Assembly (NCBI GenBank): GCA_963514005.1
Contig: OY740790.1
Location: forward strand, 44,268,001-44,332,000
DNA length: 64,000 bases
Direction of reading: 5' to 3'
DNA from: Raja brachyura
Lineage: Eukaryota
This document shows, piece after piece, positions 940-62,243 of this stretch. The notes under the pieces are model-generated. The model saw nothing but the letters and a program-made list of their open reading frames with translations, was not told where the DNA came from and made no database searches. Positions within the stretch are counted from its first letter, which is position 1; every line of letters starts with the position of its first letter. Made by a program: the position numbers and the translations under genes.

Positions 940-2890
940 AAATGACCAACTGCAGGCTGGGGACACAATGAAATGTGAATGCAGAAGGTTCTTCTTTAAT
1001 TAATTAAAAACTAATGAGTAGCTGAATACAGCATTTGCTCGCAGTCCTTTCTTACATACAGACTAAAGATGAATATGGTTAAGAAGAGAAAAATATTGCC
1101 AATTTCTTCTTAGCTGTCACAAGAGTGGCAATTTGAATGATGATAACCATAACTTTGGAATGATGAACGGTGGAAATTGTTTAAAAAACAAACATCATTT
1201 ATTCTATTTCCCCTTTCGACCCTACACTTGAGCACACATATGTACATATCATAACCTTAATTTTCCTAAAATTCAAGTGGATTAGGTCTGTAGATATTTT
1301 TTGCAGTCTGATGCCCCTTTAAAGTATCATATTGAGAATTAACTAACCATTGAAAGCTATTTAAAGAAATCCAGGGACTAAAATGTTAATGGTGTTTCAA
1401 AGGGAGATGGAATGCACTGTACTATTTTTGATTTGCATCATTTTATAGGATATATTTTCAATAATTTGAACTGGCTGAATTAATTTTGAAATGTAAATGA
1501 TGAGATAACTGAAAATAACATTTTTTAAAAAGTGTGAATATGAAATACACTATTATTGGATATACTGGACAAGATTGTCATTCAACTGTCTTTTTAAAAT
1601 CCAATTGTAATCATGCCTTTCATCGTGTTACTTGTTTCTCATGTTTGTCACTAGATTACAAAAATACTTCACAAAATTGTGTACCCACCTTACTGAGAAG
1701 TGAGAGCTTGCTGTAAGAATGTACCTGTGATTTAGATGTGAAAAGCATCTATGTACTGATGAATGTAATATTGTGATTACAAACTCAACTAATTACAGCT
1801 GCCTGTTCCCTTTTGTTGGTCCCTCAGTCAAGGAGATGTGTCATGGAATATATCAGTGGCAATCACATTGATCAGTATTGTGAAATCAGGAGGAAAGGAA
1901 TGGTGTTTGTCATTTGCTTGGAGGGAAGATGGCCGCAAGGGTTTGGTGGGTTTTGTTGCATAATTTTTCTCTTATTACAATATGGCTTTCAGTTTATTGG
2001 GCATCAATAAAATCATCAAGACATTTGGACTGGACATCTCTGACAGCCAACAAGCCCGGTAGTAAGACAAACTAATTATGATTGACTAAACGTTTACTGC
2101 AGAATAAAATTAAGTTTGCAATTTACACAGGATAGAAGTTTTAATATCATAAACAATTTTGCAACAATTCATCATTTCATCAGTAATTTTAACATAAATT
2201 TTAACATAAAATTGCAGTAAAACTCATTTTACCTTATTCAACAAATCTCATTCAACATTTTTAGTGAGAATATATATTATAATGTATACTGTATGTGTTA
2301 CTGTATATTACATGTTGTATGAATAATAATACAAGTTTTGGTCTAGTTTATTCTATTATCATTCCACTGTAAATTCCAAGCCATTGTAATTTATAATTCT
2401 GCATAACATATCTAACATGTTGCCGATGCGAATTCTGTGTTGAATAAATCAAGAAAATCTGAACACAAAAAGGCCTAATGGCAAACATATTTTGTTTGTT
2501 ATGGAGTTGCTTCAATGCTTTCTTAGCTTCAACATTTCACAATAGTTTGCTCTGTTAGACTGTGCAATGAATGATTGTATTAGCTGTGCAATTGCAAAGT
2601 AGCAAATCATGATGATGAATTAAAGTACATTGAGCATTCTAGTTCCTTCCCACAAAAGGCATCTTTCTAGAAAAAGTGCAGACCTTCAGATTAAATATTG
2701 CATCTTAACTGTAATTTCCTCATATACAAATAGGATTAATTTAATCAAAAAGATAAATTATTTCCTTGTGAAGGCTAAATTGAGCAGTTCAATAACTGAC
2801 ACATTCCTGAGCTACAGTTGCACATCTAGTCTCAAGAGTATGCAAAATAGGAATCATGGAAATGTGATTCAAGTATTATTGTCTGCTATA

Positions 2891-4496
2891 TAGTGGCTTG
2901 TAAAAGTATTCATACCCCTTGAACTTTTCCACATTTTGTCACGTTACAACCACAAACGTAAATGTATTTATTGGGATTTTATGTGATAGACCAACACAAA
3001 GTGGCGCATAATTGTGAAGTGGAATGAAAATGATACATGGTTTTCAATTTTTTTTTACAAATAAAAAACTGAAAAGTGTGGCGTGCAAAAGTATTCAGCC
3101 CCCTTTACTCTGATACCCCTAAATAAAATCCAGTGCAACCAATTGCCTTCAGAAGTCACCTAATTAATAGAGTCCACTTGTGTGTAATCTAATTTCAGTT
3201 TAAATACAGCTGTTCTGTGAAGGCCTCAGAGGTTTGTTAGAGAACATTAATGAACAAACAGCATCATGAAGCCCAATGACAGGTCAGGGATAAAGTTGTG
3301 GAGAAGTTTAAAGCAGGGTTAGGTAATAAAAAAATATCCCAAGCTTTGAACATCTCACGGAGCACTGTTCAATCCATCATCCGAAAATGGAAAGAGTATG
3401 GCACAACTGCAAACCTACCAAGACATGGCCGTCCACCTAAACTGACAGGCCAAACAAGGAGAACATTGATCAGAGAAGCAGCCAAGAGGCCCATGGTAAC
3501 TTTGGAGGAGCTGCAGAGATCCACAGCTCGGGTGGGAGAATCTGTCCACAGGACAACTATTGTGGAGTTGTGCACTCCACAAATCGGGCCTTTATGGAAG
3601 AGTGGCAAGAAGAAAGCCATTGTTGAAACAAAGCCATAAGAAGTCCCGTTTGCAGTTTGCCACAAGCCATGTGGGGACACAGAAAACATGTGGAGGACGG
3701 AGCTCTGATCTGATGAGACCAAAATGGAATTTTTTGTCCTAAATGCAAAATGTTATGTGTGACGGAAAACTAACACTGCACATCACCCTGAACACACCAT
3801 TCCCACTGTGAAACATGGCAGTAGCAGCATCATGCTGTGGGGATGCTTTTCTTCAGCAGGGACAGGGAAGCTGGTCATAGTTGATGGGAAGATGGAAGGA
3901 GCCAAATACAGGGCAATCTTAGAAGAAAACCTGTTAGAGCCTGAAAAACACTTGAGACTGGGGCGGAGGTTCACCTTCCAGCAGGACAACGACCCTAAAT
4001 ATACAGCCAGAGCTACAATGGAATGGTTTGGATCAAAGCATATTCATGTGTTAGTATGGCCCAGTCAAAGTCCACACCTAAATCCAATTGAGAATCTCTG
4101 GCAAGACTTGAAAATTGCTGTTCACAGACGCTCTCCATTCAATCTCATTGAACTTGAGCTATTTTGCAAAGAAGAATGGGCAAAAATGTCAGTCTCTAGA
4201 TGTGCAAAGCTGGTAGTGACATACCCCAAAAGACTTGCAGCTGTAATTGCAACTAAAGGTGGTTCTACAAAGTATTGACTCAAGGAGGCTGAATACCTTT
4301 GCACGCCACCCTTTTCAGTTTTTTATTTGTAATAAAATTTGGAAACCATGTATCATTTTCGGTCCACTTCACAATTATGCATCACTTTGTGTTGGTCTAT
4401 CACATAAAATTCCAATAAAATACATTTACGTTTGTGGTTGTAACGTGACAAAATGTGGAAAAGTTCAAGGGGTATGAATACTTTTGCAAGCCACTG
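2891..4496 (+). mobile_element. Full-length Tc1 (DD34E, IR/DR-type) DNA transposon with frameshifted transposase
   Basis: ~210-bp TIRs (tAGTGGCTTGTAAAAGTATTCATACCCC...GGGGTATGAATACTTTTGCAAGCCACTG), TA on both sides; transposase 3266-4278 in pieces with HTH, GRPPK, QQDNDPKY and SPHLNPIENLW (34 residues between second D and E). Confidence 0.96.
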
Positions 4497-7087: not shown

Positions 7088-7794
7088 ATATGTGGCTGAC
7101 TTAAAAATACCACTCCACTATTCCTGTTGTCAGTTGCTCATTGAATATGAGCTTCCGACCTGACCTTTTAATATTCTGATCTGCTCCTTTCAGTTGCAAA
7201 AAACCTCCTGAGAAAGGTCTTTGGCACCTCATCAAGAAAATGTTCAAAACCAATCAACTGGGAAAATATTGATTATAGCTCGTTGTAATATGCAGAATAT
7301 CTCTGGCAGAAAATACAAGACAGGTGTGTAAAGGTATGAAAATTGGTCCTGGCAATTATACATTCCTGACTCGTGCCTGTATTTGTTCCCATCTATCTCT
7401 GGGTACCTGACCATCTAGGTCAGGACTAATTATCTGCTCATTGTGATTGCTGTAATAGCTTTTTTCTCTTTTGCTTTGTTTGTATTCTTCTAAGTTTTAG
7501 AACGTACTTAATAAATAGAGAGATGTATATGAGTGTAGAATGTCCTCCAAAATTTGCAAAAAAATTCTTCTCCCTTTACTGGTTATTTTCTTTGTGTTTT
7601 AAAATTCTGTTTCTGCTGTTTAATTTCTCCACTTCACCCTGTCATTGATCTTGCCTGTTGTTTTCTATTCCCTCTTCTGCTTTCTCTGCATCTTCATCTT
7701 TTACTGTTCCAAGTTATGGTGGAAAGACAGCAACCTGAAACATTGACTCTATTTCTCTCGCCACAAAGGATTCCTGATCTGCTGTTTATTTACA

Positions 7795-8668: not shown

Positions 8669-9862
8669 ATGGAGAAATCCAGGGTGAAGTCCAGACGGGC
8701 CGCGGGGAAACCAGCTACAGAAGACCGCGGGAGTACGGGTAGCGGGCGGCCATCGAGTCGCTGGCGGTGTGGCCAGCGGCTTCAGACTTGGTGCCTGTTG
8801 AAAGTACCCAGGCAACCACGCTAGGAGGGAAAGCCAAGAGAAAGTCTGTGAGGCCTGTTGACTCGGACGAGTCAGGCGAGGAGGGTTCCCCTACTACAAT
8901 GGATAGCGTCTTCGGGCGTTTATCCCGGATGGAGCACTTGATGGAAAGGATGCTCCAGGGAATGGGGTTATATAAGCGCGGGTTTCCTCGGAGGCCCGCG
9001 GTGGCGCCTGGTTCAGGGCTGCACAATGTTTCCCTCTCTGAGGAGGGGAGCATTTGGGGTCAGGTTTGGACTGACTCGGAGTTCGGAGGTATGTCCGGAG
9101 AGCATACCACGATGCACGAGGTGCGAGAAGCAGATTTGCCTGCTATGGCATCGACGCTTGAGATACCATTGCAAATAGGGGAGCCGTTGGATGAGGAATT
9201 GGCTACGAGCATCAATTACCTTTCATCACACCAGCTCCAAGAACAGGTAATGGCAGAAACTTCTATGAAGTACCACACACCTGCTAATTGTGCTTCGCCA
9301 AACGTGGCGGCTGTTAACAGCTCTATCTGGGGTTACATCGGAGGGGGCATCAGAGCCCAGGAGGTGAAGCTCCAGAGAATCCTAAGGTTGCTGGCTTCAG
9401 GCATCACTGCCTTGCCAGGTCTGTGGATGGGGGTCCCCTGTCTGATGTGTAACAGGATGCCCTGGCATTAATATGCAATGCACATTTTGAAATTAACTGT
9501 TTACGTAAAAATGCCATCCGACCTGCCCTGAACCCCAAGTTTGCGGGACTGTGCAGGGCCAGCAACATATAGCCGCCAAATTTTTTGTTCGGAGAAGATC
9601 TGCCTAAGCAGGTCAAGGATCTGGACGAACAAGTGAAAGCTGTCGGGCTAATGAAGTTCGCATCGACAAGCAAAGCTTCATCGTCCGGCGGCAGCACCCC
9701 TACGCTCCCTTCAACAGCAAAAAGTTTGCCGAAGCTGGTGGCAGCTTGAAAGCCGAACACTCTGGGCAGAGGTCTTTTTTAAGCCCAAGCTGGTCCTCGT
9801 CAAAGATGCGCAGTTGGCACACTCCATCAGTCCTACTCCCCAAACCTCGGGGGCGGAAATAA
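8669..9862 (+). pseudogene. DIRS gag-like ORF1, frameshifted
   Basis: ORF 8767-9471 and continuations (P.NC..PNV..VNSSIW, EVKLQRI, LFGEDL) lie between the left ITR and pol. Start and end approximate. Confidence 0.65.
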
Positions 9863-10376
9863 AAAACATTCATTGACCGGTAACCATGGAGGTAGATGGG
9901 TCTGGTTCTTTCCGAAACATAGGGTGTGTGGATCAGTTGCAAGTTGGTGGGAGATTGCACTTGTTTTTGAATGAATGGCATTGGATAACATTCGATCCGT
10001 TTATACTGCACAGTATACAAGGGTTCCAAATCTAATTTGTTCCTAATTTGTTTCCACCCACACAGCATATACCAAACCGGATATTTGTTCAATCTCAACA
10101 GGAAAGTTTGGATGTACAAGCTGAAATTCAATTATAATACACAAAAGGGGTAATTGGGAAGTCATATCATGAACCTCGGGGGCGGAAATAAAAAACATTC
10201 ATTGACCGGTAACCATGGAGGTAGATGGGTCTGGTTCTTTCCGAAACATAGGGTGTGTGGATCAGTTGCAAGTTGGTGGGAGATTGCACTTGTTTTTGAA
10301 TGAATGGCATTGGATAACATTCGATCCGTTTATACTGCACAGTATACAAGGGTTCCAAATCTAATTTGTCCCTAAT

Positions 10377-11468
10377 TTGTTTCCACCCACACAGCATATA
10401 CCAAACCGGATATTTGTTCAATCTCAACAGGAAAGTTTGGATGTACAAGCTGAAATTCAAGTATTATACACAAAAGGGGTAATTGGGAAGTCATGTCATG
10501 AACCTCACCAATTTGTTTCTAATATATTTACAAGGGAAAAGAAGGATGGAGGATGCCGAATAATCCTTGATTTGACTCGACTTAACTCCTCTGTGCAGTA
10601 TAAACATTTCAAAATGGAAAACTTTGTTACTGCCAATCAACTGGTTTCCAAAGGATGTTATATGGCATGCATTGATCTCAAAGATGCATACTATTCGGTA
10701 CCCATTCACTGGGATCGCTGGAGATATTTGAAGTTTAGCTGGATGGGGCAACAATGGCAGTTTAAAGCATTGCCTAATGGGTTAACCTCAGCCCCCACAT
10801 TATTTACAAAATTATTGAAACCAGTACTGGGGCTACGTCGAGCTCAAAAGCATATTGTGATGGCATACTTGGATGATATCCTAATCATAGGGAAAACTCT
10901 GAAATTAGCTAAATTGGCTGTTTCAGCCACCAAACTCATGTTTAAGAGATTGGGGTTTCTCATCCATCCAGTTAAATCCAAGTTGATACCTTCTAGAGTT
11001 ATTGATTATTTGGGATTTACCATTAACTCTATTCACACGTCTGTGACTCTGCCTTGGGGCAAGAGATTAGAATTAATAGAAGCCTGTAACAATCTTATTA
11101 TTAAGGAGCAACCTTCTATTCGACATGTAGCCAGTATAATTGGCAAATTAGTTGCTGCCTTTCCAGCTGCACAGTTTGGGCCTTTGCATTATCAAAATTT
11201 ACAACGTGTAAAGGAGCAGGCACTCAAATTCCATGCCGGTCACTTCAGTAGACCTATGCGATTGCCAACTGAATCCATTTCTGAGTTACAATGGTGGATG
11301 ACTAATATTCGGCATTGTTCCAGTAAAATTTTGGTCAACAAACTTTCAGTTATATTACAAAGAGATGCTAGTGCTCTAAGGTGCGGAGCTACTAATACCA
11401 TCTCTAGCTGCGGTGGCAGATGGAATGTGCATGAGTCATCAATTCTTCAGTTACATGGTATTAACTAA
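10377..11468 (+). pseudogene. DIRS reverse transcriptase and start of RNase H
   Basis: KKDGGCRIILDL, FKME, IDLKDAYYSVPI, QFKALPNGL.SAP..FTK, YLDD, LGF motifs; premature stop at 11466-11468 after RNase H DAS motif. Confidence 0.93.
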
Positions 11469-12149
11469 TTAGAATTACTGGGAGCACTCTATTGGTTGAA
11501 GGCTTATTGTGTGAATATGCATAATTTGCATGTTCAACTTCAGATTGACAACACTACAGTGGTGGCATACATTAATCACATGGGTGGAATCAAGTCAGTA
11601 TCCAGTGATAAATTGGCTAACCTTATTTGGCACTGGTGTATTACAAGAAACATTTGGATTTCAGTTACCTACTTACCAGGTAGGTTCAACATGGTGGCGG
11701 ACACCAGGTCATGGAAATTCAATGACAACACAGAATGGATGTTGAATCATAAAGTGTTTAACGACATTGTCGCTCTGTATGGAATACCGGATATCAATTT
11801 GTTTGCATCCAGACTCAATCACCAGTTACCAAAGTATGTTGCATGGGAAGCAGACCCAGGGGCAGTGGCGGTAGATGCATTCTCGCTACGCTGGGGTGGA
11901 ATGATCTTTTATGCATTCCCCCCATTTTGCCTCATCAGTAGGTGCCTGCTTAAGATCCAGCAAGACTCCGCCTCAGGCATTTTGGTAGTGTCTGACTGGC
12001 CTACACAGCCATGGTTCCCACTCATACTGGGAATGATAACAGAGCCTTTTATGGCTGTTCCCAAACGCAGAAATCTGCTGGTTCACCCTGTGACTGGGGA
12101 GAACCATTCACTGCATGATCGAATCAATTTGTTGGTTTGCAGACTCTGA
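11469..12149 (+). pseudogene. DIRS RNase H C-terminus plus Dam-like methyltransferase domain
   Basis: IDNTTVVAYINHMGG and YLPGRFNMVAD (RNase H), then INLFASRLN, DAFSLRW, YAFPPF and WPTQPWFP (DIRS methyltransferase-like domain). Confidence 0.88.
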
Positions 12150-13118
12150 GAAGACTATTCCTGGGGCTCGGACTGTCAGATTGTACGGTGGACATGCTCA
12201 CTGCAGCCTAGAGAGATAGTACCAAGAAACAGTACATCTCCTATATCAAGAAATGGGAAGTGTTCTGTTTACAGTCCAACATCTCTTATGACACGGCACG
12301 TATAACAGATGTGTTGGAATTCCTCTCAAAACTATATTTTGATGAAAGACTGAGTTATAGTGCCATAAATTGTGCCAGATGTGCCTTATCATCATACTTG
12401 TTGCTGGGATTGGGACACCACTCTGTTGGATCTCACCATTTGATATCCAGGTTCATCTAGGGTGTCTTCAACTCAAATCCCCCCAGGCCCAGGTACTCGG
12501 AGATATGGGATGTGAACATGGTGCTGATGCTGCTTCGCCGGTGGGCTCCAGCTACATCCCTGTCCTTGGCCAAACTCACTTACAAAGTGGTCATGCTCAT
12601 GGCGCTGGTGTCAGCGCAACGGGTCCAGTCATTGCATAAGCTGCGACTGGACAGGATGGTTACATCTGCAAATAGTATAACATTTTATGTATGACTTAGT
12701 CAAGCAGAGCAGACCAGGGGTGTCAGGTCTCAAACTAGTTTTCATGGCATACCCCATGGACCTTCGGTTGTGTGTGGTCACACATCTACAATAGTACATC
12801 AAGGTCACCAAGAGCCTTAGAGGCTCTGAACTAGCAATGTTTGTTAGTTACATAAAACCTCATAAGAGGGTATCAGTACAGACCATCTCCAGGTGGTTAA
12901 AACGGATTCTGGCTTGTGCAGGAGTGGACACTGACGTTTTCAAATCTCACTCCACCAGGGCTGCAACAACGTCAGCAGCGAGGGTTATGGACGTTCCGCT
13001 GGACCACAACCTAGCGGCTGTAGGATGGTCAAACGAACTAACTTTCCAAATGTTTTATAACAAACCCATTGCCAGACTGGGGGTATTTGTCAATTCTATT
13101 TTAAGTTCTGTTTTATAG
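12150..13118 (+). pseudogene. DIRS tyrosine recombinase, interrupted by stops
   Basis: LSYSAIN.ARCALS, LMALVSAQRVQSL (catalytic R), TISRWLK, FKSHSTRAA (HxxR), GWS...TFQMFY (catalytic Y). Confidence 0.9.
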
Positions 13119-13734
13119 TTTCCCCCCTGGATGAGAGGTGTCACTATTATTTTAATTTGCTCATTTAAAAGCATCAGCATGTTTTAAATCTATGTCATGT
13201 CTGAATGCATTATTAATTTTCACTCATCCTTGGTCAACTGATGCAGTGTGACGCATGGACTCGTGTTCACGGCATGAAATCACAGAGCTTTGAAATCTTC
13301 ACGTAGTCACTCACGTGACTCCGAAGTAAAATAGTATGATTAAATGAGAATTTACCAGTTTGAAGTTTGATCTTTATTTTATGAGGAGTTACGATGAGGG
13401 ATTACTTGCCCTTCGCTCCCAACCCTCTCTCATAAAGGTCAGTTCTAGTTTCTCGAATCTTCCTATATTCAGTTCAACATCTCTTATCTGTGATTTCACA
13501 CCGCTGCTTTGAAGGTTGACGCGCATGTGGGCTGGTGGGCTTCTTCACGTAATCCCTCATCGTAACTCCTCATAAAATAAAGATCAAACATCAAACTGGT
13601 AAGTTCTCGTTTAATCTTACTATTATTTGACCAAACCTTTCATCACGGTTGGCTGAGAGGTTAGAATTAATCAGTGCCATGAAGTCCTTTGAGCAACTGA
13701 TCAAGCCATACATCAGGTCCAGACTTCCCAGACA

Positions 13735-13994: not shown

Positions 13995-14462
13995 CACCAT
14001 TGATCCACTGCAATCCACCTACTGCCACAACAGGTTCACAGCAGATGCTATCTCCCTCCTCACTTACTGCTGGAAATCTGGACAACAAGCACACCCAAAT
14101 CAGATTCCTATTTATTGACTACAGCTCCACCTTCAACACCATCATCCCCATCTAAACTTATCTCCAAACTCCTGGACCTAGGACTCAGTACTGCCCCTCT
14201 GTAACTGGATCCTTGAATTCCCGACCCACAGCCTGCAATTGGTAATAATAGGTGTCTAAACATCCTCCATGATGATTCGCAACACTGGTGGCCTGCGAGG
14301 GTGTGTTATCAGTCCATTACTACACAATCATGTGCGGCCAAGTTCTGCTCTAACTCTATTTGCAAGATTGCAGGTGACGCCACTGTCATAGGCGAGAACA
14401 TGATCTACGATGAGACAGGAATGTGATAGAGAGCTCAGTAAAACAATGTCAGGGAATCAACC

Positions 14463-16181
14463 ATTCCATTCCCCAGGCCCCTATCCTCTCATCTTCACCA
14501 TGGACGTCCAGTCACTATACACCTCCATCCCCCACCAGGATGGTCTCAAAGCCCTCCGGTACTTCCTCAACCAGAGGAGCAACCCATACCCATCCACTGA
14601 CGCCCTCCTCCGCCTAGCGGAGTTGGTCCTTACCCTCAACAACTTCTCTTTTGACTCTTCCCATTTCCTCCAAACACAAGGCGTAGCTATGGGCACACGC
14701 ATGGGCCCTAGCTACGCCTGCCTCTTTGTCGGGCACGTCGAACAATCTTTGTTTTTGGCGTACCAAGGCCCCACCCCCGACCTTTACCTTTGTTACATTG
14801 ACGACTGCTTTGCTGTCACCTCCTGCACCCACACACAACTGACTGACTTCATCCATTTCACCACCAACTTCCATCCGGCACTGAAATACACTTGGACCAT
14901 TTCCGACATTTCCCTACCATTCCTTGACCTCACCATCTCTATTGCAGGTGATACACTCCTGACCGACATCCACTACAAACCAACTGACTCCCACAGCTAC
15001 CTGGACTACTCTTCCTCCCACCCTGCTTCCTGTAAGGACTCCATCCCCTATTCCCAATTCCTCCCTCCCAGCCGCATCTGCTCCCAGGATGACCTGTTCC
15101 ACACCAGGTCATCACAAATGTCCTCGTTCTTCAGAGAACGGGGTTTCCCCTCCCCCACTATAGATAAGGCTCGCACCAGGATCTCCTCCATACCCCGCAA
15201 CACTGCCCTCTCTCCCCATTCCCCCACTCACAACAAGGGCAGAGTCCCCCTGGTCCTCACCTTTCACCCCACCAGCCGGCGCATACAACAAATAGTCCTC
15301 CGTCAGTTTCGCCACCTCCAACATGACCCCTCCACTCGCCACATCTTCCCATCTCCCCCCCGTCTGCCTTCCGCAAAGATCGCTCCCTCCGCAACTCCCT
15401 TGCCAATTCTTCCCTTCCCTCCCGCTCCACCCCTTCCCCGGGCACTTTCCCTTGCAACTGCAAGAGATGCTATACTTGTCCCTTCACCTCCCCCATCCAC
15501 TCCTTTCAGGGACCCAAGCAGTCATTCCAAGTCCGACAGAGGTTCACCTGCCCCTCCTCATCTACTGCATCTGTTGCTCCAAATGCCAGCTAATCTACAT
15601 CGGTGAGACCAAGCGGAGGCTGGGCGATCGTTTCGCTGAACACCTCCGCTCGGTCTGCAATAACCAACCCGACCTCCCAGTGGCTCAGCACTTCAACTCC
15701 CCCTCCCATTCCGTATCCGACCTCTCGGTCCTGGGCCTCCTCCACGGCCAGAGTGAGCAACACCGCAAGTTGGAGGAACAGCACCTCATATTCCGCTTGG
15801 GGAGTCTGCATCCTCTGGGCTTAAACATTGAATTTTCTCAATTCTGTTAACCCAGACTGCCTCCTCCTCCTCCCCACCTCTCCCTCAGCCCTTGGGCCCT
15901 GACATTCCTTCTCTATCTCCCCCCCCCACCCACTCAAGTCGCACTAGCTTCTCATTTTCACACTACAAACAGCTTACAATGGCCTGTTTCCTTTATCATC
16001 AATACTTTTTTGCATATCTTTCATTCATTGTTCTTTATCTCTCCACATCACTGTCTATATCTCTCGTTTCCCTGATCCCTGACCAGTCTGAAGAAGGGTC
16101 TCGACCCGAAACGTCGCCTATCTCCTTCACTCCTTAGATGCTGCTGCACCCGCTGAGTTTCTCCAGCTTTTTGTGTAACCC
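14463..16181 (+). mobile_element. 5'-truncated Penelope-like retroelement (RT + GIY-YIG, probably Neptune type) with 3' terminal repeat
   Basis: RT motifs MDVQSLYTSIPH, GVAMGTRMGPSYA, YIDD; Cys-rich linker; GIY-YIG LIYCICC..C.LIYIGETKRRL..RF.EH...GLN; exact 14-bp TSD TCAGGGAATCAACC at 14449-14462 and 16182-16195. Confidence 0.94.
16085..16118 (+). ncRNA. Minimal type I hammerhead ribozyme motif in the Penelope terminal repeat
   Basis: CTGAAGA (16088-16094), extra A, stem II GGGT-CTCG-ACCC, GAAA (16108-16111), palindromic ACGT stem III, GTC triplet ending at 16115. Stem I is only ~2 bp. Confidence 0.7.
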
Positions 16182-16732
16182 TCAGGGAATCAACCTCTCC
16201 CTCACTGTCAGCAAAACAAAAGAGCTAGTTATTGACTTCAGGAAATGGGATGGTGTACAAGGCCCAGTCAGCCTCAATGGTGCTGAAGTGGAAATGGTCG
16301 AGAGATTCAATTTCATAAGCATAAATATCACTAACAATTTGTTCTGGCACTACGGCCATTAATGCCTCTACTTCCTCAAAAGACTAAGGAAATTCAGCAT
16401 GTCTCCAATGACTCCTACCAATTACCATAGATGCACCATAGAAACCATTGTGTTGGGATTCATCGCTTCTTCGTTTGGCAACTGCTCTGCCCAAGATCAC
16501 AAAAAAAGCAGAGTTGTGGATGCAGCACGGTATGTCACACAAACCAGCCTCCCTCCATGGATTCCATCGGACGAAGTTATAGGAGCGTGAAAACTGTAAC
16601 GTCTAGGGTCAGGAGCAGCTTCTTCCCTACAACAATCAGGCTATTAAACACTACAACTTCCAAATAAGCTTGAACTACATAGACTTGGGGGCATCATTGT
16701 TGTCTTTGCACTATTATTGTTTTTGTATTGTA

Positions 16733-16839
16733 AGCCCACAACACCCTGGAATTGGTGGGGAGGTGGAATATTGCATTGGGGGACCAGCCCTCCTATGTGA
16801 AGCTGGGACCCAAAGGACCCATATATATATGCGTGTGTG

Positions 16840-16878
<39 letters not shown>

Positions 16879-17002
16879 GTGTGTGTGTGTATTATATATA
16901 TATAGGACTAAGTGAGACCCTTTGGGTCCTAGCTTCACATGGGAGGGCTGGTCCCCCAATGCAATATTCCACCTCTCCACCAATTCCAGGGTGTTGTGGG
17001 CT
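16733..17002. repeat. 84-bp inverted repeat around a (TA)n/(TG)n spacer
   Basis: 16733-16816 is the reverse complement of 16919-17002 with 3 mismatches; 102-bp microsatellite-rich spacer. Confidence 0.92.
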
Positions 17003-17128
17003 GAAGGGACTGGTTTCCAGAGGGTTAGTATGGACATTGTGGGCCGAATGGATTCTTGGGCTGGTGGCTCAGTCACTCAAGGCTGGTGGGCTGGCAGTTG
17101 ACTCACGGCTTTATCCTTGAAATTCCAT

Positions 17129-17478
17129 TTCAGGCAGGGTGCAAGGCCACCAAACTCAAGTGCAGTTTCATGCCGCTTCAGGCAATGTGCAAGGCCACCA
17201 AACGCAAGTGCAGTTTCATGCCATTTCAGGCAGGATGCAAGGCCACCAAACTCAAGTGCAGTTTCACGCCACTTCAGGCAGGGTGCGCGGCCACCAAACT
17301 CAAGTGCAGTTGCATGCCACTTCAGGCAGGGTGCAAGGCCACCAAACTCAAGTGCAGGTGCATGCCACTTCAGGCAGGGTGCGAGGCCACCAAACTCAAG
17401 TGCAGGTGCATGCCACTTCAGGCAGGGTGCAAGGCCACCAAACTCAAGTGCAGTTGCACACCATTTCAAGTAAGGTGC
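17129..17478. repeat. 48-bp minisatellite, ~7 copies
   Basis: Unit TTCAGGCAGGGTGCAAGGCCACCAAACTCAAGTGCAGTTTCATGCCAC starting at 17129, 17177, 17225 and onward. Confidence 0.95.
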
Positions 17479-17483
17479 ACACC

Positions 17484-19211: not shown

Positions 19212-19876
19212 CAGATGAGAGTAGGAGTAAACGGGTCGTTTTCAGAATGGCAGGCAGTGACTAGTGCGGTACCGCAAGGCTCAGTGCTGGGACCGAGCTA
19301 TTTACAATATATATTAATTATCTGGATGAGGGAATTGAATGCAACATCTCCAAGTTTGCGGATGACACGAAGCTGGGAGGCAGTGTTAGCTGTGAGGAGA
19401 ATGCTAGGAGGCTGCAAGGTGACTTGGATAGGTTGGGGGAGTGGGCAAATGCATGGCAGATGCAGTATAATGTGGATAAATGTGAGGTTATACACTTTGG
19501 CGGCAAAAACAGGAAGGTAGACTATTATCTGAACGGTGGCCGATTAGGAAAGGGGGAGATGCAACGAGACCTGGGTGTCATGGGACACCAGTCATTGAAA
19601 GCAGGCATGCAGGTGCAGCAGGCAGTGAAGAAAGCGAATGGTATGTTAGCATTCATAGCGAAAGGATTTGAGTATAGGAGCAGGGAGGTTCTACTGCAGT
19701 TGTACAGGGTCTTGGTGAGGCCACACCTGGAGTATTGCGTACAGTTTTGGTCTCCTAATCTGAGACATTCTTGCCATAGAGGGAGTACAGAGAAGGTTCA
19801 CCAGACTGATTCCTGGGATGTCAGGACTTCCATATGAAGAAAGACTGGATAGACTTGGCTTGTACTCGCTGGAATG
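19212..19876 (+). mobile_element. CR1 LINE RT fragment
   Basis: VPQGSVLGP, KFADDTKLG, WQMQYNVDKCEVIHFG, LVRPHLEYCVQFWSP; same family as 1-663; ends abruptly at the GA tract. Confidence 0.92.
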
Positions 19877-22514: not shown

Positions 22515-22702
22515 CAACGGGAAACACTGGATATACTCAGCAGGTCAGGCAGCATCTGTGGAGGGAATAATCAAGGTTATGTTCCAGGATAATTACCTTC
22601 TGATGAAAGCTCAAATGATCTGAAGAGTTAGCTCTGTTTTTCTCTCTCTGCAGATGCTGCCTAATTGGCTAACTATCTCCAGCATTGTCAGTTTTTATTT
22701 CA
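22515..22702. mobile_element. Old fold-back Penelope-terminal-repeat derivative
   Basis: CTGGA.ATACTCAGCAGGTCAGGCAGCATCTG arm and inverted CAGATGCTGCCT...CTCCAG arm around a decayed CTGATGA core near 22600. Confidence 0.65.
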
Positions 22703-30069: not shown

Positions 30070-31620
30070 ATAAAGGATCAGGCAGCATCTCTGGAAAACG
30101 TGGATAGATGAATTTTGGGATTGGGAACGTTCTTCAGATTGTTCGTGAGGGGTGAGGAGGAAGAAAGCTGGAAGAGAAGAAGGGTAAGACAAAGCATGGC
30201 AGGTAATAGATGAACACAGATGAGGGAGGGTTTTGATAGGCAGATGGTTTGACAAAGACTGGAGATGAAAAAACAGATGGTGTGAAACAAAGAGATCTGA
30301 AGAATTGTGAATTGTGGAGCCAGAGGAATATCAGTGGATGTGGATGGGAGAAATAGGTGCGAGACCAGATGGGGCAAGGGGTAGGAAAAGAAAAGAGGGC
30401 ATGGGGGAGAAAGGAGAGGGGAAGCAAGGAGTTGTCAGAGGTGACTTAAAATCGGAGAATTCAATGCTTATACTTCTGGGTTGTAAGCTATCCAACTAAA
30501 ATATGAGGTGCTCTTCCTCCAGCTTGCATGTGGCCTCACTCTGGCAATAGAGGAGGCCTAGGACAGAAAAGCCAGTATTAGAATGGGGGAGTTAAAATGG
30601 TTAGCAACTAGGTGATCCAGTAGGCCTTGATGGACCGAGTGCAAGTGTTTGACGAAATGGTCGCTATGTCCAAGCTTGGCCTCACTGATGTATAGGAGGC
30701 CACATCGGGAAAACTGGATGTAGTTGATGAGGTTTGAGGAGGTGCACATGAACCTGTGTCTCACTTGGAAGGTCTGGTGGGAGCCCTGGATGCAGATGAG
30801 GGAGGAGGATTAGGGATCGGTTTTACATCTGCTTTTGTAGGAGAATGTACCTGGCAAGGGGATGGTGTGGGTGCGAAGACATGTGAACCAAAGATCAAAG
30901 AGTTGCGGAGGGAGCAGTCTACAGAAAGCGGAAAGGTGTTGAGATGGTAAGATGCTAGTGGTGGCGGGATCAAATTGGAAGTGACGGAAATATTGGACAC
31001 AAAATGCTGGAGTAACTCAGCGGGACAAACAACATCTCTGGAGAGAAGGAATGAGTGATGTTTCAGGTTGAGACCCTTCTTCAGACTGATCAAGGGGAGG
31101 ATGATATGTTGGATGCAGAGGCTGGTGGGATGTAAGGTGAGGATCAGAGGAACTCTATCCTTGTTTTGTCTAGGGGGGGTGGGAGTGTGAGTGAGAGAAC
31201 TACAGGACAGAGAGGATATGTGGGTGAGGGATCCATCCATGACAGCAGGAGGGAAACCATGTCTACTAAAGAAAGCATATCTTGGATGTCTAGAATTTAA
31301 AGCCTCATCTTAGGAGCAGATGCGGCAGAGGCAGTCGAATTGAGAGAAGGAGATAGTGTATTTGCAGGAGGCAGAGTGGGAGGAAGTGTGGTTCAGATAA
31401 CCAGGAGTTGTTAGGCTTATAGTAGATGTCAGTTGATAGTCCGTCCCCTGTGATAGAGACAGAGCATCAAGAAAGGGAAGAGATGTGTCAGAGATAGTCC
31501 AGGGGAATTTGAGGACAGGTTGGAAATTAGTGATTAAGTTGTGCAGGAGGCAGCCCCAATGCAGTTGTTGATGCAGCAAGGAAACAGTTGGGGGACAATG
31601 CCAATGTACATTTCAAAAGT
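30070..31620 (-). mobile_element. Degraded Penelope-like element with terminal repeats
   Basis: Minus-strand WTISDTSLPFLD, NKDRVPLILT.HP, LINYIQFSRCGLLYI.E and VANHFNS, homologous to 14463-16181; hammerhead-type repeats at ~30080-30140 and ~30995-31090. Confidence 0.85.
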
Positions 31621-33017
31621 GAACTTGTTGAGGGTAAGGACAAATTCAGTCAGGTAGGGGAAGCATTAGGACACAACCAGAGGGCCTTGAGACCTTCCTG
31701 GTGGGGGATGGAGGTTTAAAGGGACTGACAGGTTGATGGGAAGAATGAGGCAATGGGCGTCTTAAAATCTGAAAAATAGTGGGGCTTAAAGAATCTATCA
31801 AATTGTCGAAGATGACACCCAGAACGCCCATTATTTCCACAGTTACTACCTTCAAACCCCCTAGCATGCAGTTGATTAAGTCGAAGGGTTTTATTATATT
31901 TCATTTCTATTAATCTCTCCAATGTTGATCTTTAGCTAATTTTTTTCAGTTTCTCTTTCTTCAGTAAGTGGAGTTATTAGGATGTGCACATGAGTTTTTA
32001 CTATGATTAGTCACTCTAGAGGAACATTGATCTTATATGAGTCATATTAAATCTGCAGAAAATGGCTGTTCAATTCTTTAAAATGACATTTATTGCAGAC
32101 TGTAATGTACATCACGCTTGAGAAAACATAGAACTTCCATTTCATTCCAAATAATTGTCATGTTCCAATGCATTACAATAACTCTTCACATCATAAAGGA
32201 AATCAGACCTGCAGAAACATTAAAGTTCTTCCGTTCAGCTTATTTAACCAAAGAATTGCTTTAATTTAAAAAAAAATGTAAACAATTTTATTATAAGGTA
32301 ACCAAGAAATCAGTCATCTTACCAAATCTACAATTTTAAATTGAAGGAATTAAATATAAACAATTCTAACTAGCACATCCCTCAATGATTTCTGCATCAT
32401 GAACCAAACCTCGCTCCAGAGAGCCATCTAGCATGGAAACAAACGCTTTGCCCCAAATTGTCCATGCCGACCAAGTGCTCATCTAATCTGGTCCCATTTG
32501 CCTGTGTTTGACCCATGTCTCTTGAAACAAATGTATTTTAATTATTATTATTGTGCATGTCTCAACCACTCGTTTGATATAACCACCATCTGCTGTGTGG
32601 AAAAAGTTGCCCCACAATTTTGATTAAATCTTTCCCCTCTCACCTTAAACCTAAGCCCTCTAGTTCTTGATCCCCAAACCCTGGGAAATCTCAATGTAAC
32701 CCATTACAGCTATTTGATATGACTCCCAGTTCCACACAATTCGTAAAATACAGTCTTATCTTAATAGCCTTCTACTCTCAACACCCAATACCTGGAAAGA
32801 TGTAATTAGTGGTTGGGATTCTATGTTCTAAATAATCAAGATTGGTCGAGTTAACTGTATACCTCCTTAATAAAAGCAGTATGTAATGAATGCTTCAGGG
32901 CAATAAAGTTGCTTTCATGTGTAGACACAGCTGGCATATTGTCCCACAAAAAAACAACATGAGAAACATTTTTGATAAGATGAATATTGTCCAGGAGACA
33001 AAGTAACAATTCCTCAG

Positions 33018-33178
33018 ATAGACAGAAAAAGCTGGAGTAACTCAGTGGGCCAGGCAGCATCTCTGGAGAGAAGGAATGAAGACGGTTGAAGAAGGGTTTT
33101 GACCTGAAACGTCACCCATTCCTTCTCTTCAGAGATGCTGCCTGCCTCGCTTAGTTACTCCAGCTTTTTGTGCCTATC
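33018..33178. mobile_element. Fold-back Penelope-terminal-repeat mini-element
   Basis: ~60-bp inverted arms (33018-33078 and 33117-33178) flank TTGAAGAAGGGTTTTGACCTGAAACGTC. Confidence 0.85.
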
Positions 33179-34720: not shown

Positions 34721-34859
34721 GGGTTGCAGAAGGGTTTCGACCCTTTCCTTCCTCCATAGATGCTGCCTCACCCGCTGAGTTTCTCCAGCATTTTTCTCTA
34801 CCTTACGTTTTTCCAGCATCTGCAGTTCCTTCTTAAACATCTGCAGTTCCTTCTGCTTC

Positions 34860-35640
34860 CTGGCGTCCTCTAGGTGTGAAAGCCGGCACTTATGAGAGTG
34901 GCAGAGGGAGGGGAAGGGAGGGGCAGGAGGTTCAAGGAGGTTCAAGGGGGTTCAAGGGCCTGCTGCCGGGTGACGGGCATGGTTCGTTGCCGGGAGTGGT
35001 GTGTTTAGGTGCAGTACGGTAGAGAGGGGCGGAGGCTGTGGCGGTGCCGTTTTCGCCGCACTGTCTCGTTCATTCATTCATGGCTGCAGGTGGAAGTGAG
35101 GAGGTGCGGGCGGGCGGGCGGTAGAAGGGAATGATGCGGGCAGCCCCCTGAGCTGGCTTGAACTCGCACCGTTTAGACACCCACCGGCGATCGCTTGCTG
35201 TGCCATGGAGGAGAGTGCGAGCGAGGCGCTGCCCGAGCTGAAGGATCTGGAGCACAAGGTGGGACGGAAGACGCCCGACGGCTTGCTGCGCTGGCTGCGG
35301 GAGGACTCGGCACCGGCGCCCGGGGACAAGGCGGATTCTGCTGGCCCCGGGAGCAGCGGCGAGCCGGTGTCCGCTCCGGACACACGCCAGTCTCAGGGGC
35401 TGGCGGAGAAGATCCGAGTGCTGAGGCTGGAAATGGTGAGGCGGGGAGGAGGGAGGTGCACGATCGCTGATCCGGTTGTTATCCTGCCCCCACCCCACTG
35501 TCGCTCGGACCGTCCGATCTTCAAGCCCCGGGGCTGCCCCGACTGTAACCTCCCACTTGTCACAGGGAAGTGTCTGCCCCATCAGCTGTGTCCCTTCACC
35601 CGGCTTGTTGGATTCGCACAGTCGGGGGGATTGGGACCCG
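34860..35640 (+). promoter_or_regulatory. CpG island / promoter of LURAP1
   Basis: Sharp rise in GC and CpG, GGGGCGG box near 35026, spanning the first coding exon. Confidence 0.75.
35205..35435 (+). CDS. LURAP1: LURAP1 (leucine-rich adaptor protein 1) exon 1
   Basis: GCCATGG Kozak; LPELKDLEHKVGRKTPDGLLRWLR...LAEKIRVLRLEM resembles the LURAP1 N-terminus as recalled; phase-0 donor ATG|GTGAGG at 35436. Confidence 0.92.
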
Positions 35641-50875: not shown

Positions 50876-51615
50876 TGTGTAAGTAAGCATCTTAAAGTAA
50901 TGGCTACGATGGAAATTGTGTTTTTGGACTATGGGAAAGATTACATAATGGAAAATTTCACCGTTGTTTATCCTAATCTGATTCATTTCCTGTTTTTCTA
51001 TATATTAATGTATTAATGAGAAAATGGGCCACTCTGTGTTTTGTGTGCTTCTGCAATCAAACTGTGAATGAGCTATGCTTGCAAATTTATAATTAAACCA
51101 CAAAGGAAATCAGTTTAAATGAGAACAATATTAAATTATTCCCTATTTCTGGAGGCTGCAGAATTCTAATCTCAAGGTATAATTGAAGCATAATATTGAA
51201 GCACATATTAAAATTGTGTCTGATTAATTGCATCAAATAATTATCCTTGCCCTGATCTTCTTTTAAGGAACCATGTAATAATTAACTTTTATTTATGCCT
51301 CTTTGACCTTGGAAACCTTGGCAACCTCCTTGCTGCTTGTCCAAGGAAAGTACAGGAACTCCGTGCATTGCAAATATTCTGCCCTACGAAAAATTTTTTA
51401 TACATGCTTATCTCTAAACTAAACCAATGCCACTATGAACTTTCTACTTTTTATAATCATGAATCCAAATAAGTTTATTTTCAATAGGAAATGCAAAGTC
51501 TATTGCAATGCAATTCCAAAACAACTCTGACTGCAGATGATGGAATCTGGAGCAAGCGCTGCACGAATTTAGTGGGTCAAGATGCATCTGTGGAGGGAAA
51601 AGGTGTTAGTTGATA

Positions 51616-52554: not shown

Positions 52555-53005
52555 ACATGTGTATGAAGGAACTGCAGATGCTGGTTTAAACTGAAGATAG
52601 ACACAAAATCTGGAGTATCTCTGCAGGACAAGCAGCATCTTTGGAGAGAAGGAATAATGTGACCTTTCGGGTCAAGTCTCTTCTTCAGACATGTCAGGGG
52701 AGAGGGAGATACATGGATAAGGAAGTGGAAGGTGTGAAAATAGGACAAAGGGAATAGAGATGATGGAAAATGTTAGCTGGGAGAAGGTAACATTGTTAGC
52801 GGGGAGAAGGTAACAACAAAGCAAACATAGATAAAACGTAGTCGGAGATAATAAGACTGGTCGGTGAACTGGGAAGGGGGAGTGATTCAGAGAGAGGAAA
52901 AGCAAGGGTTACTTGAAGTTAGAGAGGTCAATGTTCATACCACTGGGGTGTAAGCTGCCCAAGTGAAATATGAGGTGCTGTTCCTTCAATTTGCATTGGG
53001 CCTCT
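52555..53005 (-). mobile_element. Penelope-like 3' end (GIY-YIG tail plus terminal repeat)
   Basis: Minus-strand KLKEQHLIFHLGSL.P.GMNID; hammerhead-like CTGAAGAAGAGACTTGACCCGAAAGGTC at ~52660-52688. Confidence 0.82.
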
Positions 53006-58172: not shown

Positions 58173-60549
58173 GACTCTTTCCTAGTGGCTGCATGCTGTA
58201 AAGGTTGTAATTTTGTTTGCTTTGTAAACTTTTAACTTCTTGCTTACTACACTTTCAAAGTTGCTTGTTATTACTTGATTTCAAGGCACGGTCTAACCTT
58301 TCTTAAAGTGTTGATAACACTTTTATAGGTTTCAATCATGTAAAGGATGGAGACACGAGGGTAAAGAGCTTCTCCAAGAAAGGACCATGGGGAAGGCGCA
58401 GCTTCTGACTCTGGTATCTTAGAAGCAATATTGAAAATGAAAGATGAAATGAAAAATGAAATGATAACAAGATTTTGCAGTTTGGAAGAAATGATGAAAG
58501 GAATTTCGAGCAAATTGAAGGAATTTCAAGACAAGCTGATTATGTTACATGATGAATCTCGTGAACAGAAGGAACAAATTGATAACTTGCGAACCTTGGG
58601 CCAGGAAAGAGATTTGAAGATTGAAAAACTGGAACGAAAAATGAATGAAAATACTCGGGCGCTCCAGCAATACAAGATTAAAAATATGGATCTGAAAAAC
58701 AGAAGGTCAAGAAGGGGGTAATGTTATAAAATATGCCTCTAAAATGATAATGGAGACTTTCAACACCGAGCACTATGAAAATCTTCCAATTTTGCATAAC
58801 GCACACAGGAGCGAGAAGAAATCTGGCCTCCAAGATAAACCGAGACATTTGATCATTCGGTTTCACTTCTTGCAGATGATGGAGAATATCCTCCAAGCAC
58901 CAAAAAAGTTGGGCATGTTTGAATATGAAGGATGCAAGTTTCGGTTTGTTCCTGATTACTGCTGTGAGCTTTTGGAATTGAGAAAGTCTTTCCATAATGT
59001 AATGTCTGAGTTGTTTAAGAAACAGTTGCACCCCGCCTTGCTTTATCCAGCTAGACTGTGTATACGACTCTTTAATGATAACAATCGATTTTTTAACAAT
59101 CCTCAAGACGCTTCCAGCTTTCTGGAGGCTTATGGGGGTGAAGCCGTGACGGGGAACTACTGATAGTTGATTAAGTTACAATTGGAGATTTATTGTTCCC
59201 TTGTGACAATATATCATTTTGTAAATGATTAAGAATTTAATTGGATGAGTTGTTCTTTAATTACTTTTTAGAATTTGAGTATGATGGTATAAAACAACTT
59301 TTACCTACTCTAAGATACTGTTAATTTATGTAATGGTATTATATATTAATTTTTAAGATCTTCTTTGTTAACTTTTCTATTTTTTAAATCAAAGGAATTT
59401 TTCCCTGTCTTTAGACAAATAAAATGAATGCAGTTCTTGTTTTTCATATTTTGACCTTGGATAAATAATATGAAGTAGCTCTTGTCTTCCACAGTTAACA
59501 TGAATTTCTTAACCATAACATTAATTTTGTTTTTGGCTATTAAGTGGTAAATATGATAAAAATAAAACTTTTTACATTGGGTGCTGTCATTAGGAGAGAT
59601 GGGAGTAGGGAAGGGATTAAGTAGCGTACTGACTGTCTATTGGTCAGTTTCGGGCCTTGCATGGGAGGGTGGGGGTGGGGGGGGGGGGTCTTTCGCTTTT
59701 AGCTTAGTTTTTTTCTATCTGGGCAGAATTTGAACTACAAAAATGTCTGAAATGTCATCACTTCTGGCTCCGCCTTAGATTCTTCTCCTTCCGGTATCAT
59801 GAACTGTTATGCTTTAAGAAATTAACCCTTTATGTTCCATATGATTTTTACAAACAATATGGATAAAGTTATTAACTTCCATTCATGGAGTGTGAATGGT
59901 TTGAGCCATCCCATTAAGAGAATTTTTTTTTAAGTTCTTCATAGACTAAATACTCAGATTATCTTTGTTCAGGAAATTCATGTAAGGAAAGATGACAATC
60001 AACGATTTTTTAAGTTTTGGAGAGGACAGCAGTTTCATTCGAATTTACAGGCTAAGGTGAAAGGAGTCTCTATTTTTATTGACTCCTCAATTTTGTTTGT
60101 ACATTATGAAACGATTTCTGATCCATATAGTAGATTTGTGATGATTACTGGTGTTCTTCATCACCAAAAAGTTGTTATGGTGAATGTTTATGCACCTAAT
60201 ATTGATCACCCTAAGATTTTCAAACAGTTAATCGCATCCTTTCCTAATTTAAATCAACATCTTTTAATAATGGGTGGAGATTTTAACTGTTGTTTGAACC
60301 CCTCGATGAACCCCTCAATCTGCATCTGATCATGTGCTTCCAAATAAATCAGCTAATTCTTTTTTACTTGACTCTGGAATGTTTGAAGTCTGGCGATTTC
60401 TACACCCAAATGACAAAGAGTTTTCTTTTTTCTCTCATATATGTCATAGTTACTCTAGGATTGACTACTTTATAATAGATTCTCGGCTAGTTTCATCGGT
60501 CACTGTGTGTGAGTATGATGCAATTGCTATTTCTGATCATGCACCATTG

Positions 60550-60723
60550 AAGAGGGCGTTAGATGTGGCACTTGGGGCTAAAGGGATCAGGGGGTATGGA
60601 GAGAAGGCAGGTACGGGATACTGAGTTGGATGATCAGCCATGATCACATTGAATGGCGGTGCAGGCTCGAAGGGCCGAATGGCCTACTCCTGCACCTATT
60701 TTTCTATGTTCTATGTTTCTATG
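60550..60723 (+). mobile_element. CR1 3' end inserted in the L1 endonuclease
   Basis: Near-identical to ~490-663 including the TTTCTATG tail; interrupts L1 just after SDHAPLK. Confidence 0.9.
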
Positions 60724-61924
60724 AAACTATCAATTAAATTACCTGATTCCAAGTTTAGTGCTAAACAATGGCGATTTAATACTACTTTGCTTCAAGATCT
60801 AAATTTTGTTAATTTTATTAAAGCTCAGATCACTTTTTTCTTCTTAACAAATTCTACTGAAGAAATATCCAATGGTGTAGTCTGGGATGCTTGTAAGGCA
60901 TATTTTCATGGACAAATTATTTCATACTCCACGGGATAAATAAAACAAACTCAAAATGAAATACGTATATTGACTGATGAGATTAAATAAATTGATAAAA
61001 AATATTAAAAAGCTCCTAGTCTAGAGCTCCATAAGAATATTGAACTTCAATTGAGACATGATTTGTTATTAGTATCACCGATTGAGAATCAGTTACTGAA
61101 AACCAAAAGTCAATTTTATATATATGGTGATAAATCTGGTAAATTACTCGCTAATCAATTGAAAACTGTGTCAGCCAAATGTCAGATGACTAAAATGAGT
61201 AAACGGGATGGTATATTGACTGTAGACCATGATGAAATTAATAAATCCTTTCAGGAATTGTATACCTCTCTATACCAATCAGAATTTCCTACTGATTCCA
61301 ATATAATGCAAGAGTTTTTAAAGAAACTGAACTTGCCAAATGTACCACATAATGAATCTCTGTTGCTAGATTAACCCATCATGGAGGAAGAAATACAGAA
61401 AGCAATCCTTTCAATGAATTCTGGTAAAGCTCCTGGTTTAGATGGGTTTACAGTGGAATTTTTAAAGTATTTCTCAAGTTTACTGTCTCCCTGGCTATGC
61501 AAGGTTTTTAAAGAAGCCTTTTTAATGAATAGATTACCACAATCCTTTTATGAAGCATCTATTTCTTTAATTCTTAAAAAAGATAAAGTTCCTACTGGAG
61601 TGACATCATATCTCATAATCTACCCAACTCACATTTCTTTAGAATTTACAAATTAGATATTTGTTGAGGGCTACTCAACCCTTTTTTTCCGTTACCACAT
61701 CAAACCGAAATCTTGGAAAACATTTTACATTTGAACCCTTATCAGAAGGCTCAATAACATTGAGTTGATTTTTAAATTAAAAAAAGATACATTTGATAAA
61801 ATTAAGAATGATTGGGAAAGAGAACTTCAAATTTCTCTATCTATAGAGAAATGGGAGAGAATCGTCAATCTTCAATTAGTTAATACTTCCTCAATGTGTG
61901 CATGCCACGCTTTGATACAATTTG

Positions 61925-62147: not shown

Positions 62148-62243
62148 GGGGGTTACACAAAAAGCTGGAGAAACTCAGTGGGTGCAGCAGCATCTAAGGA
62201 GCGAAGGAGATAGGCGACATTTCGGGTCGAGACCCTTCTTCCT
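62148..62243 (-). mobile_element. Solo Penelope terminal repeat
   Basis: Reverse complement nearly identical to 16090-16181, ending at the same GTGTAACCC. Confidence 0.88.

Follow-up and report, generated by a model that had tools for sequence, protein, structure and literature searches.

A high-copy minimal hammerhead motif in a Penelope-like element of Raja brachyura and its likely place at the element RNA's 5' end

Minimal hammerhead ribozymes have been described in the terminal repeats of Penelope-like elements (PLEs), where dimers showed weak activity in vitro (PMC4209133). In a PLE of an anole, reverse transcription starts internally at two sites that bound the tail, with priming on both strands; cutting by the ribozyme requires the protein, and the principal substrate is uncut RNA (PMC11167929). 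The Neptune and Nematis PLEs are defined by a CX2-5CxxC linker, and the role of PLE hammerheads was called unclear in the same source (PMC8557442). Transcription of Drosophila Penelope starts 46 nt before a 75-nt intron. This intron ends at helix I (PMC4209133). An additional G is the mark of capped full-length ends in L1 (PMC11702581). Literature searches of open-access work, mostly by title and opening lines of the abstract, listed no paper on the present family among cartilaginous fish, nor one on the 5' boundary of its copies.

The hammerhead motif and its host element

The window, a 64,000-nt stretch of the R. brachyura contig OY740790.1, contains at 16085-16118 a motif that a preliminary description had presented as a hammerhead core with an extra A, a palindromic stem III and a stem I of about 2 bp. 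The sequence proved to be as described. In order, it consists of AGT, the CTGAAGA core (16088-16094), the extra A (16095), stem II with its loop (GGGT/CTCG/ACCC), GAA, the palindrome ACGT (16111-16114), the scissile C17 (16115, with the predicted cut 3' of it) and GCC. Numbering takes C3 (16088) as +1 and the preceding base as -1, so that the predicted cut falls directly 3' of +28 (16115). The features of this region, all on the forward strand, were as follows.

14449-14462 (+): left copy of a 14-bp target-site duplication (TSD)
14462-16183 (+): 5'-truncated PLE, unit positions 2343-4067, 93.8% identical to the natural full-length copy L098
14462-15606 (+): reverse transcriptase (RT) part of the ORF (RVT_1, E=1.3e-5), with indels relative to L098 near 15361 and 15555
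15556-15850 (+): Cys-rich linker region and GIY-YIG endonuclease (EN) part of the ORF (E=5.8e-4)
15851-16083 (+): pyrimidine-rich 3' UTR or upstream pseudo-LTR (pLTR) part
16084-16087 (+): positions -4 to -1, 5' strand of stem I (2 bp), also the start zone of short copies; putative RNA 5' end
16088-16115 (+): minimal type I hammerhead with CUGAAGA core, an extra A, a stem II of 4 bp and its 4-nt loop, GAA, the palindrome ACGU and C17
16116-16183 (+): tail 3' of the cut site that terminates within the first 3'-end cluster (+87 to +97); putative start sites of reverse transcription
16182-16195 (+): right copy of the 14-bp TSD

The core at 16088 contains CUGANGA...GAAA...UH and a paired stem II closed by G10.1-C11.1. 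The sequence CCAGTCT around -4 to -1 resembles an initiator consensus. Stem I comprises 2 bp (U.G and G-C), as it does in 125 of the 168 distinct copies with an intact core, and a G/A change at stem I position 1.1 still pairs with U. A longer stem I in other subfamilies was sought among these 168 copies and was absent, the seven cases of 4 bp involving flanking or added bases. The motif fits the consensus CUGANGAH...GAAAN-palindrome-NUH of PMC4209133. An Rfam scan of the window returned no hammerhead model at E<=5; its miRNA matches were fold-back repeats.

The hammerhead occupies the 3' end of the PLE at 14462-16183. Two overlapping frames cover the coding part, 14404-15606 (RVT_1) and 15296-15850 (GIY-YIG), the first opening upstream of the element boundary, and both Pfam matches fall below the curated cut-offs. 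The genome was searched with the RT; 150 of 39,392 candidate places were scored, and 20 stretches around those with long frames were examined. The full unit measured 3,965-3,971 bp and was composed of a hammerhead, the tail, an ORF from +163, about 230 bp of 3' UTR and the next hammerhead. Two copies, L095 and L098, are partial tandems that carry the hammerhead in both terminal repeats, 3,971 bp apart, with a frame of 1,203-1,204 codons between. The L098 protein (1,192 aa) is encoded by a single ORF in the order RT then EN, with DKG at 597, YIDD at 838 and a GIY-YIG-type motif at 1096. The start codon of this ORF (L098 ~2800-2812) lies within AAG|GTATG, which resembles a splice donor. The assembled contigs of four runs, whose RNA origin is uncertain and one of which is probably DNA, gave no start or end sites and no clear splice joints.

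Between RT and EN, the L098 ORF contains a CX2-5CxxC linker (aa 1058-1066). Based on the protein sequence, this linker provisionally places the element with Neptune/Nematis as defined in PMC8557442. Partial tandems, inverted copies and a tail of 30-40 bp, as expected of EN+ PLEs, were also found.

Abundance, conservation and predicted folding

Across the 2.70-Gb genome, the 28-mer had 52,217 exact matches and the reversed pattern had none. In 600 kb of genome sequence (60 evenly spaced samples on 8 contigs), 34 strict descriptor matches were found, 33 of them in this PLE family, compared to 0-3 in ten shuffles. Based on these two comparisons, the motif is not a product of chance. Extrapolation from the 600 kb gives about 150,000 intact cores and about 900,000 tail copies of all ages. 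Exact genome-wide matches numbered 64,092 for a 21-mer of the tail and 8,618 for a 49-mer reaching -11. The claim of a minimal hammerhead in a PLE terminal repeat at very high copy number was borne out by the RT and GIY-YIG matches, the units with two repeats and the 28-mer count.

Within the window, a profile scan gave 15 matches at E<=1, including the focal copy. The ten additional sites listed in the preliminary description were all real and mostly decayed, that at 7731 being weak, and four copies were added (22601-, 33078-, 45580+ and 51599-). Only the copies at 16088 and 31084(-) passed the strict descriptor, the second with its stem III palindrome lost. All copies in the window are single or head-to-head and most have broken cores. 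The stubs listed here are short copies that begin near the core.

7731-7789 (+): very old remnant (E=0.035)
22520-22691: head-to-head pair of an old divergent subfamily (profile scan)
30075-30138 (-): decayed stub
30500-31727 (-): rearranged old PLE fragments, ~67% identity, around the hammerhead copy at 30995-31087
33018-33177: head-to-head pair of older stubs, C3 lost (profile scan)
34725-34840 (+): stub with an internal deletion spanning the cut site
38305-38384 (+): decayed stub
45493-45674: head-to-head stub pair, core broken (45493-45636 in the profile scan)
51553-51599 (-): tail-only remnant (E=4.7e-4)
52557-52707 (-): older copy that retains part of the upstream UTR and has a damaged stem II
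62152-62241 (-): young short stub starting at +3, 97.8% identical to the unit

Other features were recorded in the window. An RT-bearing element occupies 8743-13620; it has two ORFs, 10365-11468 (RVT_1, E=9e-20) and 11469-12149, as well as inverted repeats near 13330-13620, and looks DIRS-like. An exon with a LURAP domain (E=2e-47) lies at 44179-44883 (+). The frame at 35100-35840 (+), without a Pfam match, may by resemblance be the first LURAP exon; the stub at 38305 would then be intronic. A 230-bp inverted repeat surrounds a (TA)n/(TG)n tract at 16753-16983, and a tandem repeat with a period of ~47 bp occupies 17100-17480. A fragment of a DDE_3 transposase and the remains of several LINE-type RT/endonuclease sequences were located at 3763-4278, 41296-43367(-), 58696-61374 and 19265-19837. 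The tRNA-like match at 38917-38989 (-), with 36 bits and mispairs, is probably a pseudogene or a SINE head.

To compare subfamilies, 375 near-complete copies were clustered on the tail alone and the majority lines of the 8 clusters with at least 5 members were examined. The core varied at 3 of 28 positions, two of these by CpG decay, compared to about 11 of the next 22 (counted by eye), a contrast biased by the use of a core-seeded profile to gather the copies. Tail blocks farther downstream were as constant as the core. The expectation of a core more constant across subfamilies than its flanks held, within this biased collection, against the adjacent 22 nt. Covariation in stem II, one of the checks that had been proposed, did not emerge within the genome: stem II was identical in 146 of 168 intact-core copies, the remainder included wobble variants, and a compensatory change (A-U for G-C) was seen in one copy only.

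Predicted energies were -6.7 kcal/mol for the double hammerhead, -9.6 for a pair of separate monomers and -19.7 for a competing duplex. The 99-nt hammerhead region folded no better than shuffles (z=0.29), and its predicted minimum-energy structure buries the core. With a double hammerhead of lower predicted stability, no unusual fold in the 99-nt region and a stem I mostly of 2 bp, spontaneous cutting appears unlikely from these models.

Ends and joints of the copies

The ends of insertions were determined for 113 distinct young copies (tail anchor with at most 1 mismatch), drawn from the 60 spaced samples together with 70 loci at the beginning of C1, matches close to locus edges being dropped; about half of them derive from the initial 2.7 Mb of a single chromosome. 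The 3' ends fell into two clusters, with 76 at +87 to +97, 34 at +121 to +132 and 3 elsewhere. Of the 5' ends, 28 lay at -75 or farther upstream, 50 fell between -7 and +1, and 33 were at +3 to +38; the other 2, an inverted pair, lay at -25/-22. Within the range -7 to +1, the commonest positions were -3 (13 copies), +1 (10), -2 (9) and -4 (7). Almost no young copies had their 5' end just upstream of this range, and only two began at +29.

Most young copies are therefore short stubs with a 5' end just before the core, a point that the preliminary description had missed. The stubs (83 of 113) measured 60-135 bp, mostly started at -4 to +1, often after an extra G, and had the tail sequence and both 3'-end clusters in common with the long copies. 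An inverted upstream partner accompanied 32 of the 113, and about one third of the stubs were head-to-head. In stubs led by GG before the core (L121, L191, L215 and others), a third stem I pair can be formed with the conserved C at +31. A splice acceptor at CAG|T, as in Drosophila, was considered as the cause of the boundary and was rejected because 48 copies starting at -3 had no common upstream exon.

Genome-wide, with one common 3' anchor, visible starts numbered 4,464 at -3, 7,033 at -2, 3,308 at +1 and 1,094 at +8. No accumulation of 5' ends was seen genome-wide at the cleavage site, where purine-led starts numbered 375 compared to 333 at the +32 control (p=0.12). Cleavage as a routine step was thus not supported, with no pile-up of 5' ends at the scissile site and a dimer predicted to be unstable.

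The base preceding the copies was then inspected. A G preceded 2,356 of the 4,464 starts at -3 (53%, compared to a background of 34%) and 63 of the first 100 listed starts at -2. For +1, the count was 14 of the first 100 listed (Fisher p=3e-9 against -3). At +8 it was 43 of the first 100 listed, a value inflated by A-to-G mutation of intact copies. Among 29 inspected G-led copies, four were non-inverted with a TSD of at least 7 bp, and three of these had exactly one extra G; a single extra base was found in none of eight comparable non-G copies (non-inverted, with TSD). Judged from these genomic ends, the extra G suggests that RT ran off a physical end of the RNA at -4 to -2. It may be a non-templated addition rather than a copy of the cap, as an extra G was also found at junctions at +29, where no cap is expected.

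These junctions were found in head-to-tail arrays. In two TSD-flanked insertions on C1, every unit spanned +29 to +90 and the units were joined by 1-3 purines ending in G; in a third array, +29 to +88 was repeated after an intact first unit. The arrays with units from the predicted cut site were located at C1:74835257-74835576 (L236-L240), C1:117724506-117724729 (L243-L246) and C2:55272484-55272640 (L250). Genome-wide, same-strand jumps from +90 that landed at +25 to +29 numbered nine at five loci, all at +29 or possibly +28, and a sixth array was found beyond these loci. Landings at -6 to -2 numbered 12 at 12 loci, seven of them with G directly before CAGT or AGT. No jumps landed at +17 to +21 genome-wide, and five at four loci, mostly with microhomology, landed at +33 to +37. 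Given the count in this last control window, the excess at +29 is weak; the arrays hint only weakly at rare cleaved templates and are not clearly above background.

The repeated units of the four short arrays inspected lacked a full core. A further array at L053:7630-8130, with a unit of ~66 bp (+20 to +86), belongs to an older subfamily without the first half of the core and lies beside an assembly gap. A much larger array on C18 (L091-L092, 46.36-46.38 Mb) contained four full units and a partial one with a period of 3,965 bp, five hammerheads, a split ORF (325 + 1,033 codons) shared by the units and an apparent 15-bp flanking duplication. Units 1-3 were identical and unit 4 had seven differences confined to its end. 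A rolling-circle origin was not supported for this array, since the pattern of differences fits DNA-level expansion better; assembly effects are possible.

Proposed origin of the copies and comparison with known systems

On balance it is likely that the hammerhead lies at the extreme 5' end of the element RNA and is copied into DNA mostly uncut. Transcription would start at -4 to -2, just before the core. The element protein would prime at a DNA nick and begin copying inside the tail. When reverse transcription starts in the 5' copy of the tail, it would run off the RNA end after ~100-130 nt and leave a stub; when it starts in the 3' copy, long 5'-truncated copies such as that at 14462-16183 would result. 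Priming on both strands would produce head-to-head pairs. Cutting would require a second hammerhead and help from protein, and would be rare at most. A start at -3 or -2 would explain the limitation of stem I to 2-3 bp. The genomic stubs are likely inert, and a head-to-head pair cannot form a double hammerhead because its motifs are on opposite strands. The start known for Drosophila Penelope counts against this model, as 46 nt and the 75-nt intron separate it from the ribozyme.

The best-surviving alternative is the active cycle of Cervera and De la Pena, in which the 5' and 3' hammerheads pair and cut and a ligated circle becomes the template of long and partial-tandem copies, stubs arising from uncut RNA. 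We regard this as unlikely. The constancy of the core across subfamilies agrees with it, as do the nine +29 junctions at five loci with the sixth array, set against none at +17 to +21. The repeats within partial tandems differed at only 3/874 and 13/1495 positions, compared to 46/882 between insertions, and a ligated circle would restore the junction, making long copies compatible. On the other side, the +33 to +37 control also holds five junctions at four loci, mostly with microhomology, simple ends show no peak at +29, the double hammerhead is predicted to be unstable, and the C18 array is better explained by expansion at the DNA level than by a single rolling-circle run.

An RT normally stalls when it enters a hairpin and not after traversing it, which argues against the boundary being a site of RT stalling or joining at the 5' foot of the structure. 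Such a boundary, or one set by SINE-like short masters, in either case with a non-templated G, seems improbable. Folding of the region is unremarkable (z=0.29), and the stubs have the tail sequence and both 3'-end clusters of the long copies. That the G excess is present at -3 and -2 and absent at +1 also speaks against a boundary other than a transcription start, even though the extra G recurs at the +29 junctions and the ends spread over -4 to +1 and trail to +38. Non-autonomous pLTR derivatives, as short masters would be, have been described (bioRxiv 2026.07.22.740005).

Least probable of the three alternatives is a motif that no longer cuts and is kept as a protein-binding site or as an internal promoter just 3' of the start site: internal promoters have been shown for Penelope, stem I has only 2 bp, stem II lacks covariation (146/168 with one stem II) and the predicted minimum-energy fold buries the core, but all catalytic positions, the extra nucleotide and the palindrome agree with a consensus maintained in different animal phyla, the ribozyme of the anole element cuts when helped by protein, and the +29 arrays exist.

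Returning to the RNA 5'-end model, an extension of it is speculative and more doubtful than the model itself. The hammerhead could serve as a cap-proximal self-decapping switch, in which the protein pairs two copies, the cap and ~30 nt are cut off and the RNA leaves translation; a start 2-4 nt upstream would limit stem I to 2-3 bp. If this were true, the hundreds of thousands of stubs would form a fossil library of 5' ends, capped and uncut or cut, for each lineage, and the +29 arrays would be genomic evidence of cutting by a Penelope hammerhead in the germ line. The model itself predicts exactly where transcription starts (-4 to -2) and exactly where the RNA is, on rare occasions, cut (+28/+29). 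The genome is a large natural record in which tens of thousands of young insertions map the end of the template to a few bases. Solo minimal hammerheads in many animal genomes would have a simple origin as run-off copies from RNA 5' ends.

In the non-LTR retrozymes (Li et al., bioRxiv 2026.07.22.740005), non-coding pLTR derivatives also bear hammerheads, and one chondrichthyan is reported there. Retrozymes are tandem units each with a full hammerhead, whereas the present copies are single or head-to-head and the array units lack the core. Short tandem units with a complete hammerhead each were found neither among the window copies nor in the four inspected arrays.

The element resembles the Neptune/Nematis EN+ PLEs (Craig et al. 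2021, PMC8557442) in its RT, CX2-5CxxC linker and GIY-YIG domain, and in its partial tandems, inverted truncated copies and tail. It differs from their microsatellite bias, as several copies have clear 10-16-bp TSDs in ordinary sequence. With Poseidon PAc of Anolis (Frangieh et al. 2024, PMC11167929), it has in common two clusters of 3' ends 35-40 nt apart, in the tail 3' of the ribozyme. As in PAc, uncut RNA would be the template here, and the priming of both strands would account for the head-to-head pairs. The PAc ORF begins inside the ribozyme, compared to +163 here, and the available text on PAc does not address where short copies begin at their 5' end.

The closest likeness is to the PLE hammerheads of PMC4209133, with the same CUGANGAH core, extra nucleotide, G10.1-C11.1 pair, loopless palindromic CG stem III and terminal-repeat location, and with mostly single dispersed copies and some close inverted pairs. 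The vertebrate examples listed there have a stem I of 3-6 bp, compared to 2 bp here and in Drosophila and Culex, and stem II, at only 4 bp, also differs from those examples. The searchable text of its supplement makes no mention of shark, skate, Callorhinchus or Leucoraja. The 52,217 exact copies compare to ~4,000 descriptor matches in coelacanth and ~9,000 in Xenopus, obtained by different methods. The hammerhead class with its extra A and its palindromic stem III had thus already been published (PMC4209133). The genome-wide counts, the G signal, the lack of a pile-up at the cut site and the arrays starting at +29 come from the present analysis and were not listed in the literature searches of the scope given above.
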